Of a DNA stretch of 64,000 bases, positions 22,906 to 27,078 are shown in pieces. The DNA lies in sequence record PQ666541, one strand, 5' to 3'. The DNA is from Shigella phage sb3. The position numbers were made by a program, and so were the translations under genes. The notes beneath the pieces were generated by a model. It ran no database searches. It had not been told where the DNA came from and saw only the letters and a list, made by a program, of their open reading frames with translations. Within the stretch, counting starts at the first letter, position 1. Every line of letters starts with the position of its first letter.

Positions 22906-22962
22906 TTCCTCATGTTATGTCAGTAAGATTATTATAACACAACACGAGGGACTTGTAAACTA
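22906..22962 (-). promoter_or_regulatory. T4 early-type promoter module (copy A of a ~57-bp repeat)
   Basis: Minus strand reads GTTTACA, 18-nt spacer, TATAAT; near-identical copy at 38664-38716. Confidence 0.55.
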
Positions 22963-25017
22963 CATCTTGAACTTTTTAGACATTCCGTTGATGTTAACCA
23001 AAGAAGCCAAGATTTGAGAAACTTCGTTTTCCTCTTCTTTTGATTCTTCTACAAGGAATTGATTAAACCCAGCCATTGGACGAACTTCACCAGTTTCCAT
23101 TAGATGATCGCCATCATATACCGATTCTTCTAATTGTTCAGAAGGAGGAACGATTGTGCCTTCGATTAGATACTTATTATAAGCAGTTTCTTTCATCATG
23201 TACGTGCTCACTTTATTAATCTTCAGCAAAATTCCACGCGGTAGAATAACTTCAGCTTCTGATGGAAATCCTGATAAATGACCTGGAACGATAACTTTAA
23301 TTCGCTCAGCTCCTTTTATTACCATACCTACGCTAGTTTCAGCATCTTCATTAGCATATGCAGAATGACTGCCCATATGCATTAAATCTTCAGCATCAAC
23401 AGAACCTTCTCCTTCACCAGAAAATACTGCGCCGGAATCATCTAGAGCCATATAGTTTTTACCATGCTCACCGAAGATATTTGGTTTAAGTGATGTGGAT
23501 ACGAAGTTCTTAAAATAGAACATTTTATTTTCAATATTATGACGTAAAGTTTTAAAGGTAACTTCTTGCCCACGATAAAGCGTAGTTCCTGGAGGAAGAA
23601 CTGAACCTTTGGCAAAGGCAGAATCCATCGTCTCGATGTGTTTAATAGCTCGTTCCATGTATTCTTCACGGGTAGAATCTGGTTTACCTAAGAGGAACGA
23701 GTTCATTTCAACATATGAATCTGCACAATAATCTTCAATTACATCAGACTCAGACTGAGTTAATCCTTTTGGAGTTACTTCGGTGCTTGCGTATTCATAT
23801 GCCTGAGCAGCAGATTCATTAATCAATTTATAAATGTTATTCATGACAAATTGAATAATAGCTACCTTTTCGTCTGGTGTGGCTTTAGAACCTTTAACTA
23901 AATCATTGATAATTTTCTTAATAACATCAAAGCTATTAGAAATATTAATGTCAGCGAGATCGCTTAAAATTTTATCAGTTTTATAATCAAAAAATTCTTT
24001 ATTCTTTAAATATTCTTGAGAACCTTGATATGTTATATCGCTCTGCAGCTTGATAGATGGATCACGTAAACGTGCATGGGCCAATGCAATATGATTTCGG
24101 AAGCTTTCTAGTTCATAATCGTTAGATTTAAAACGAGAAGCACTTCTCATACCACCGATAGCTCCTTTGCCGAAGTTTGAACCAATCTGAATAACGCCAG
24201 AGTTCATTGGTCCTTCTGCTTTATATACCGGAACTTTAGATTCAAACTCTTGATATTTCTTAGCAGCGAAGCTATCACCCTGAAGCGAAGCATCGACAGT
24301 AGAATATTGAGCTTGCGCTGCTAATCGACGACTAATTTTAGTTTTCTGAATAACAGCTTGATCCGTGCGCTTATCATTTTCTAAAGCAATAGAAGCAGCA
24401 ACAGCAACAGCTTTAGGAACAGCATTACCTGTTTTAACATCTACATAAACATCACCAACCTTTGATTCAACTTTTGTGAATAACTCAGTTGAAATAGGAG
24501 GTACACCTGGAATGTCTTCTAAATTGGCATTTTTACGGTAAACCATAATATATGCATACTTTTTATCATAATCCCAGATTTCCTTTAAAAGAACATATCG
24601 ACCTGCTCCTTTAGTACGTACTAAACGGTCAGCAATAACTTGCATTTGACGAGCAGCGCCATTTGTTTTACTTTTTAGTACGCGGAATAGGCATGCGTCA
24701 ATTTTATACTGTTTCATTGTTTGAAGAGCAGTATCAAAAACCGCATTAATGACACCAATTGGATTTCCACCCAAGTTTTTAAGTTTAACTAATGATAGTT
24801 TCTCATTGACACCTATCATTACGATATGCATCATTTTATCGCCTGGCTTAACGTTTTTATTTGTATCACCGCCAGAGGTGTATGTACAAAATCTAAATCC
24901 AGGAAGCACACTTTCTTCGCCTGCTTGAATAGCAAAAATTTGAGGTATTTTATGCTTAGGATTTAAGTTAACAACCGGCGCCGAAGCGCCGTCAAATAAT
25001 TCTGTAATAAGTTCCAT
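22960..25017 (-). CDS. alt: Alt-type ADP-ribosyltransferase, intact copy
   Basis: 685-aa ORF with N-terminal MELITELFD capsid-targeting-like leader and C-terminal ART signatures (YRGQ, FVSTSL, SEAEVILPRG). Confidence 0.8.
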   Translation of the reverse strand: MELITELFDGASAPVVNLNPKHKIPQIFAIQAGEESVLPGFRFCTYTSGGDTNKNVKPGDKMMHIVMIGVNEKLSLVKLKNLGGNPIGVINAVFDTALQTMKQYKIDACLFRVLKSKTNGAARQMQVIADRLVRTKGAGRYVLLKEIWDYDKKYAYIMVYRKNANLEDIPGVPPISTELFTKVESKVGDVYVDVKTGNAVPKAVAVAASIALENDKRTDQAVIQKTKISRRLAAQAQYSTVDASLQGDSFAAKKYQEFESKVPVYKAEGPMNSGVIQIGSNFGKGAIGGMRSASRFKSNDYELESFRNHIALAHARLRDPSIKLQSDITYQGSQEYLKNKEFFDYKTDKILSDLADINISNSFDVIKKIINDLVKGSKATPDEKVAIIQFVMNNIYKLINESAAQAYEYASTEVTPKGLTQSESDVIEDYCADSYVEMNSFLLGKPDSTREEYMERAIKHIETMDSAFAKGSVLPPGTTLYRGQEVTFKTLRHNIENKMFYFKNFVSTSLKPNIFGEHGKNYMALDDSGAVFSGEGEGSVDAEDLMHMGSHSAYANEDAETSVGMVIKGAERIKVIVPGHLSGFPSEAEVILPRGILLKINKVSTYMMKETAYNKYLIEGTIVPPSEQLEESVYDGDHLMETGEVRPMAGFNQFLVEESKEEENEVSQILASLVNINGMSKKFKM

Positions 25018-25020
25018 GAT

Positions 25021-27078
25021 TTATCCTTGAACGAACTTGTAAGGCATGTTTGTAATATCTATGCAAGACGCAATAATTCCAAGAGATGATTCTACTTTCT
25101 GTTTAACATTTGATGAAACAAATGATGCAAAGTCAACTCTGTCTTCTATTTCAATATCACCTGTCATTGCAACTACTTCACCAGTTTCCATTAGACGGTC
25201 ACCGTCATAAATGACTGATTCGGTGAGTTCTTCCGTAGTCATAACTTCAGCTTGAATGAGTTTTGTATTAGTTTTAGTTGTTCCATCATTATTAGAAGCA
25301 TCAGTTATTTTATTGACTTTGACCATCAATCCGCGTGGTAGAATAACTTCAGCTTCTGTTGAAGGCGCTAAACTTCCTCCTGGATATACAACATTAACTT
25401 TATGAGCTCCATCAATTGCCCATCCTATTTGAACTAAATTATCGTTTGGATTAATAATTCCTTCTTCATTTTTATCGATAGAACTGTTAAGACGCTTTTC
25501 GTCTGGTAAAAGACCAATACCAGCATGCGTAATCCAAGTACCAAAAATGATAGGAGTTAAAGAAGTAGATACAAAATTTCTGAAATAGAACACTTTATTT
25601 TTAACTAGTGCTTCGTATATAGGAGGTAACATACTTTGAGCACGATAAACTGTAATGCCTTCTGGTATACGATCACCATTTTCAAAAGCTGAGTCTAAGT
25701 TATTTATAGCAGATTCAATTTCTGGTGCTGTTAAAATACTTTTTCACTCATCTGGATTGTAGCGGCCTAAAAGAAGATTATTGATGTCAGTATATCCTGA
25801 TCCACAGTACTCTCTAATGCCGCGCTTTTGCGATGGAGTATATTTAGATGAATCTTTATTTTCGACTATAGAATGCAATGACCATCCAATGGTAATATCA
25901 TATCCACGCAATTCTCTTTGAGGAATCTTAGTTTTTGCTGCGTTCCAGGAATTTTGTAGTTATTTCTTCCCAGCATCTTCCTTTAAATGCGAATGGTTGT
26001 TATTATGTTTATCAAGCCAATTATCTTTATATTCTTCAAAAGTATGATTAACTATAGAAGCAATAGTTTCTAAACATTTTATTGAAGTAGTCGGTTCTTT
26101 TCGTAATCTTTCTAAAGCTTTAATCTTTATTTCTTCATTAACCTCAGATTCTTTTTGAAAAGAATTTATAGAAGTTCATCTGAGTTCCATTTCAGCAATA
26201 ATAGTTTTAGAAGCATTCTCTAATGCAAATCCTGAAGTAGAATTAACAGTTATTTCTTCTGCTTCGGGAATTAAAGGAGCGGTAGCAGGTTTATTGAAAT
26301 TAGCTGCAGTAGATTCATACTTCTGGAATAATTCACTTTCAAATCTAGAAGATTCCAATGACTGACTTTGTGCAATTGCTCTACGGGAAATTTTAACTTT
26401 AACGATTACCGCTTGGTCAGAACGTTTATCATTTTCTTGCGCAATAGATGCAGCAATTGCCTCATTTTTAGTTACTTGAGCTCCAGTATCTTTATTGATA
26501 TAAACATCACCGACCTTCGATTCAACTTTAGTAAAGAGCTCGGTACTAATTTCAGGAACTCCTGGGATGTCTTCTAATGATACATTTTTGCGATGTATAA
26601 GAATATATGCATACTTTTTATCGTAATCCCAGAGTTCCTTAAGAAGGACGTATCTGCCACCTGAACGACTGCGGATAAGTCTATCAGCAATAAGTTGAAT
26701 TTGACGAGCTTGACCAGCAGTTTTAGACTTAAGAATACGGAGCATACAGGCATCAATTTTATACTGACGCATCGTTTGCATTGCAACTGTAAAAACTGAA
26801 TTGATATAATTAATTGGGCTTGGACCGAGACCTTTTAATTTAGCAATTGAACCTTTAGCAGTTAATGTAAAAGGAACAATATGCATCATTTTATCGCCCA
26901 TTTTTAAATCGCGATTAGTATCACCTCCAGATGTATAGGTACACAAACGAAAGCCTGGTTGTTCAATTGCGTCATCAACATGAACTGAAAAAATTTGCGG
27001 TATTTTCTTCTTTGGATTTAAGTTTGTAATCGGAAGAGTAGTATCTTCGTCAAATAATTCTGTAATGAGTTCCATCAT
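25021..27078 (-). pseudogene. Second Alt-type ADP-ribosyltransferase paralogue interrupted by three in-frame stops
   Basis: One reading frame of about 685 codons, colinear with the intact copy, carries TGA at 26176-26178, TAA at 25960-25962 and TGA at 25744-25746; ART motifs retained in the last segment. Confidence 0.75.

Follow-up and report, generated by a model that had tools for sequence, protein, structure and literature searches.

Three in-frame stops in the alt gene of Shigella phage sb3: a probable consensus artefact in a conserved tandem of two Alt-type ADP-ribosyltransferase genes

The tandem alt pair

The sequence record PQ666541 of Shigella phage sb3 was analyzed over a stretch of 64,000 nucleotides (nt), further called the window, which belongs to a T4-type phage (Tequatrovirus) and has pSs-1, KNP5, sb2 and KRT47 as best public matches over 20 kilobases (kb), at about 96%. 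Central to this analysis are two adjacent minus-strand genes that resemble alt, the gene of the ADP-ribosyltransferase (ART) Alt of phage T4, and the three in-frame stop codons that interrupt one of them. The downstream copy (22960-25017, minus strand) is an uninterrupted open reading frame (ORF) for an Alt-like paralogue of 685 amino acids (aa). The upstream copy (25021-27078 with its stop codon, minus strand) is the T4 alt orthologue and also spans 685 codons, but both the ORF list and direct translation show three internal stops in its frame: TGA at 26176-26178 (codon 301), TAA at 25960-25962 (codon 373) and TGA at 25744-25746 (codon 445). As written, it is thereby divided into ORFs of 300 aa (26176-27078), 55 aa and 203 aa (25021-25632). 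The other two frames of the same interval contain 38 and 91 stops, so that the frame with three is clearly the conserved coding frame.

The two genes are true, colinear tandem Alt paralogues (PF03496, R-S-E type). The original prediction, made from the sequence without database searches, had described them as colinear minus-strand paralogues of about 685 codons with an intact downstream copy, had placed the three stops at the positions given above and had proposed alignment to T4 Alt as a check; all of this is borne out by the ORF list, the translations, the alignment, the domain profile and the shared motifs. The intact copy aligns with T4 Alt from end to end, its conserved N-terminal region of about 235 aa included (42% identity over 716 columns, E = 8e-161). 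With Pfam profile PF03496 (gathering cut-off 23.4 bits), it scores 73.3 bits; the score is 50.5 bits for the C-terminal fragment of 203 aa from the upstream copy, and 124.1 bits for T4 Alt as a control. Both copies keep the motifs of the catalytic arginine (YRAQ/YRGQ, or YR-x-Q), the Ser-Thr-Ser element (FVSTS) and the Glu-x-Glu element (EAEVILPRG), which they share with T4 Alt. In the upstream copy, all ART motifs are located past the third stop, and the arginine motif precedes the first ATG of the 203-aa ORF.

T4 Alt (gpAlt) is a capsid-packaged mono-ADP-ribosyltransferase that is injected together with the DNA. The upstream copy occupies the position of T4 alt, between alt.1/gene 30 and the paralogue, and is nearly identical to T4 Alt at both ends (the first 240 and last 90 residues). 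As written, it differs from it by the three interruptions of the frame and by a middle part that blends two allele types. ADP-ribosylation of the alpha subunit of RNA polymerase and capsid packaging are known for T4 Alt only (annotation of the T4 record).

The pair itself is a standard, conserved and already documented Tequatrovirus arrangement, consisting of alt and an old full-length paralogue. The downstream copy shares 98% nucleotide identity with the second Alt-like gene in hundreds of Tequatrovirus records, nearly all of which, as far as listed, annotate that gene as a single coding sequence (CDS); examples are KRT47 (gp193/gp194), pSs-1 (gp209/gp210), AR1, U115 and SH7. Its orthologues are KRT47 gp193, pSs-1 gp209 and 'alt.-2' of ime09, to which it is equal in length (685 aa) and position, and nothing notable sets it apart from them. 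The relatives examined all have the pair intact, except where the second copy has been reduced: T4 retains the remnant alt.-1/alt.-2, which its record annotates as an old duplicate of the initial part of alt, and in IME537 a small Alt.-2-like ORF is all that is present. Nolan et al. 2006 (PMC1524935) recognized such ORFs, together with a full-length duplicate in phage 44RR (44RRORF187c, which is comparable to the downstream copy), as paralogous duplications of alt. The tandem duplication put forward by the original prediction is thus real as a pair, but not as a new event.

On the minus strand the pair is preceded by gene 30 (DNA ligase, 27313-28773) and by an intact alt.1 homologue of 62 aa (27128-27316), identified from the ORF list and the annotation of relatives. 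It is followed by an intact alt.-3 homologue of 96 aa (22609-22899, minus strand), which is 100% identical to pSs-1 gp208 at the amino acid level, and then by genes 54 and 48 on the plus strand.

Allele composition of the interrupted copy

Two families of alt alleles are relevant here. A-type alleles occur in T4, pSs-1, U115, AR1, OE5505, IME537 and SH7. B-type alleles occur in KRT47, KMB23 and Killian, are 39 nt longer and differ from the A type by many internal insertions and deletions (indels). The interrupted copy is about 90% identical to its best matching record, yet in its middle (25500-26300) this falls to only about 80%. Aligned with alt of pSs-1, it shows no indel while 12% of the sites differ, and nearly every differing base is of the B type. 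Private bases are few: 43 out of 2055 positions against the allele panel and 18 against pSs-1 and KMB23. With so few private bases, and with differences in the variable region of gp23 that look natural, general random sequence noise was rejected as the cause of the interruptions in alt.

The blend is concentrated in a central zone of 1.1 kb (25249-26359, minus strand; CDS nt approximately 720-1830), delimited by allele comparison. Over 411 informative sites in this zone, the sequence switches 68 times between A and B, and several of these switches lie 1-5 nt apart. Length follows a different logic than base identity. At all eight A/B length differences the window has the A length, even though the left flank is B-type at seven of the eight and both flanks are B-type at two. 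The choice of base tracks how well A and B can be aligned locally. Where the local identity between A and B is at least 70%, the window carries the B base at 82-97% of the informative sites; where it is below 50%, the window carries the A base at 73-84% of them. This amounts to a dose-response relation. The ratio of nonsynonymous to synonymous substitution rates (dN/dS), suggested as a check by the original prediction, is meaningless for the interrupted copy, because that copy blends two alleles.

A closer intact allele, against which the stops would be simple point mutations, was not found in the records searched. None of 50,697 phage records exceeds 80.6% identity to the central 800 nt, and protein searches with the middle of the upstream copy returned best matches of only 71-74% identity.

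Each of the three stops lies within an exact B-type string, of 12, 17 and 13 nt, respectively. Stop 1 is part of CAGATGAACTTC, which B reads as GAT GAA CTT; in the window it is out of the frame of B, and the next 8 nt of B are missing. Stop 2 is part of CTGGGAAGAAATAACTA (read by B as TGG GAA GAA ATA ACT), again out of the frame of B, and an A-type base directly after the TAA restores the register. Stop 3 is part of ATGAGTGAAAAAG (read by B as ATG AGT GAA AAA), which is out of frame and displaced by about 20 nt from its position in B. The three stops are hence B-type DNA written on A-type coordinates, adjoining B-specific length differences of 8 nt, 1 nt and about 20 nt that have been suppressed. 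Since the B strings are laid on A coordinates without their indels, the gene keeps a single frame throughout. The residues around the stops correspond to an out-of-frame translation of B-type DNA and to no conserved protein sequence.

The same signature outside alt

A comparison of all annotated pSs-1 proteins against the window (tblastn) revealed further interrupted genes. In nrdB (40335-41513, minus strand), a TAG at 40983-40985 splits the product into 176 and 198 aa. This stop lies inside a 14-nt Killian-type string that is shifted by 2 nt, with a compensating change of -2 directly after it, so that the pSs-1 length is preserved. The gene for gp30.4 (minus strand) has a TAG at 30533-30535 and a TAA at 30446-30448. 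Here, a string of the T4/KRT47-type gene 30.5 has been placed on pSs-1 coordinates with its indels dropped, which results in the two stops, while the gene 30.5 of about 190 nt is itself absent from this region. Gene 34 (50659-54528, plus strand), encoding the essential proximal subunit of the long tail fibre, is split into 150 and 1118 aa by a TAA at 51109-51111. The first base of this codon is of the pSs-1 type (TTA) and the second of the Killian type (AAA), and three allele switches occur within 12 nt. The gene for gp30.3 contains a TGA at 30097-30099 (minus strand), and a frd.2-like ORF of 126 aa, 76% identical to its pSs-1 counterpart, contains a TAG at 46907-46909 (minus strand). Around 46181, a 1-nt deletion relative to pSs-1 shifts the frame of the neighbouring 81-aa ORF, which therefore falls into two tblastn pieces. 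A viable phage cannot have its essential genes broken, which makes the sequence of the window itself suspect.

The relation of the window to pSs-1 points in the same direction. The two align in a single blastn high-scoring segment pair (HSP) of 64,004 columns, at an overall identity of 96.5%, with 2223 mismatches and five gap openings (20 nt), or 445 single-nucleotide polymorphisms (SNPs) per indel. Pairwise comparisons of pSs-1, KRT47 and Killian, natural genomes that have diverged to a similar degree, yield 47-52 SNPs per indel, and each is broken up into 6-8 HSPs. Relative to pSs-1, the window is thus about tenfold deficient in indels over 64 kb. The longest stretch without a single difference from pSs-1 measures 3414 nt (56476-59889) and spans gene 37, the hypervariable gene of the distal tail fibre. 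At 1451 of the 2239 sites where window and pSs-1 differ, the window has the base seen in KRT47 or Killian.

Another record from this clade shows that sequences of such quality do exist. Shigella phage sb4 (PQ666542.1, 122000-132000) likewise has pSs-1-like coordinates, and its alt is exactly as long as that of pSs-1, from which it differs by 73 substitutions and no indel; it contains five internal stops. Its split genes include those of gp48, both alt copies and the ligase. The extra substitutions of sb4 are mostly private noise, whereas those of the window are mostly alleles known from other phages.

Origin of the stops

We consider it probable, with good confidence, that the stops in alt are an artefact of a consensus that was anchored to a reference or drawn from a mixed population, and that they do not mark a pseudogene. 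In such a scenario, the consensus would have been built on the coordinates of a pSs-1-like genome with an A-type alt, and bases of a second, KRT47/Killian-like phage with a B-type alt would have been entered at all places where a nucleotide-level alignment of the two was possible. Length differences would have been ignored, and the bases of the anchor retained where the donor could not be aligned. Reference-guided assembly would act in this way, and so would the polishing of a draft genome if the reads came from a mixed lysate. In the hypervariable middle of alt, B strings would then land on the A coordinates with a shift of 1 or 2 nt from the frame that they have in B, and give rise to TGA, TAA and TGA, while length and frame stay A-type. 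The coordinates of one genome, the bases of another, ignored indels and a retained anchor together form a footprint that argues for a consensus, and for neither mutation nor homologous recombination. The window shares this footprint with reference-guided or mixed-population consensus chimeras in phage records, which have the length and coordinates of the anchor, donor SNPs where alignable and anchor sequence elsewhere, and likewise carry in-frame stops at allele junctions, essential genes included. Colinearity with a single anchor genome with too few indels, and donor bases confined to alignable stretches with the donor indels dropped, are exactly what is seen here. On this explanation, alt is most likely intact in the real phage, and the decayed copy is most probably no real biological feature.

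Several observations fit this explanation less well. Five small indels relative to pSs-1 exist, which implies that indels were not ignored absolutely; the largest is a 12-nt expansion of an ATTATG tandem repeat (around 10360-10385), and the rest are changes of 1-3 nt. About one third of the bases that depart from pSs-1 are found in neither KRT47 nor Killian, so they point to no single donor. The stops in gp30.3 and gp34 show no shifted strings, only mixing at the level of single bases or private changes, and random sequence noise may contribute to both. Furthermore, the stops in alt (25744, 25960 and 26176) are spaced by exactly 216 nt (72 codons), twice. The chance of this is about 0.002-0.004, as judged after the fact, and the spacing is predicted by none of the explanations; we treat it as a coincidence. 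A 72-codon repeat was rejected as its source, as the segments between the stops are mutually dissimilar. In addition, T-even phages recombine intensively, and alt is dispensable. Finally, the laboratory or computational process proposed here is deduced solely from the footprint that it would have left in the sequence.

The first alternative is that the window is an in-silico product, either a consensus or imputation from several Tequatrovirus genomes or the output of a generative model, in which alleles were mixed column by column on the coordinates of one genome. It would leave the same footprint of position-wise mixing, anchor length and broken essential genes, and is in this respect inseparable here from reference-guided assembly. 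The small indels, such as the ATTATG expansion and the 1-3 nt changes, look like real variants called from reads, not like alignment columns, and we regard this origin as unlikely.

The original prediction took the conservation of the frame as a sign of a recent pseudogene. A natural dead allele would have arisen in a mixed infection through many short-patch recombination or repair events between A- and B-type alt, and would have been tolerated because alt is dispensable and the paralogue is intact. The blend is indeed built from two real natural alleles with few private bases, the adjoining intact paralogue is 98% identical to those of relatives, and loss of one copy of the pair has natural precedent in T4 alt.-1/alt.-2 (PMC1524935) and in the small Alt.-2-like ORF of IME537. 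Nevertheless, such an origin requires some 68 crossovers within 1.1 kb, several with no more than 1-5 nt between them, and the loss of every B-specific indel while the adjacent B-type bases were kept. It also leaves unexplained why nrdB, gp30.4 and gene 34, which is essential, are damaged in the same manner, and why indels against pSs-1 are tenfold too few over 64 kb. A pseudogene would be expected to carry lesions private to its lineage in an otherwise single-lineage allele, in a genome that is intact elsewhere and above all in its essential genes. What is found are stops in B-type strings, no indel against the A type, few private bases, and further stops in gene 34, nrdB, 30.3, 30.4 and the frd.2-like ORF. 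Moreover, no second sequence with these junctions was found in the databases searched. The same lesions are lacking in the phage records, the protein database, IMG/VR, metagenomes and an exact-protein look-up, in which few close relatives are represented, so that this counts as weak evidence. The junction strings in the form of the window were found in neither IMG/VR nor the metagenomes, where a gapped control pattern recovered the B-type form only; with few Tequatrovirus alt genes present there, this is a weak negative. The exact-protein look-up returned neither the 300-aa fragment nor the intact paralogue. Taken together, a natural dead allele is quite improbable, and the inference of a recent pseudogene is not upheld.

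Slightly more doubtful still is that the blend is real in the sense that, in a clonal phage, the gene was scrambled by recombination or repair between alt alleles of 65-80% identity, in dozens of very short patches. If true, the window would document ultra-short-patch heteroduplex repair as it occurs naturally in T-even phages, and also the replacement of one Alt paralogue by the other. Lastly, expression of a functional alt through stop-codon suppression, which the original prediction also raised, or through readthrough or recoding is highly implausible: although a single frame extends over 685 codons and the ART motifs beyond the stops are intact, the stops in alt are of two different kinds (TGA and TAA), all three kinds interrupt other genes, TGA, TAA and TAG serve as ordinary terminators of other genes in the window, and the residues at the stops are no conserved protein sequence. 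A suppressor transfer RNA (tRNA) was rejected, as no tRNA gene was found in the 64-kb window.

Meaning for the window as a whole

If read literally, the interrupted copy would suggest either that the classical Alt enzyme is being lost while its paralogue takes over, or that a T-even phage suppresses stop codons. What the evidence indicates is a problem of data quality across the whole window. Any pseudogene, split gene or odd allele in it, including those in nrdB, gene 34, 30.3 and 30.4, is suspect until checked against the reads. The real biology at this locus is the tandem pair of Alt-type ADP-ribosyltransferase genes, with a hypervariable middle for which at least two allele families exist, and it is already documented.

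A separate observation concerns gene 23, which encodes the major capsid protein. Between 6300 and 6480 (plus strand), 26 bases that are absent from pSs-1, KRT47 and Killian cluster in a variable stretch of this protein. They leave the reading frame intact and have the look of a natural allele.

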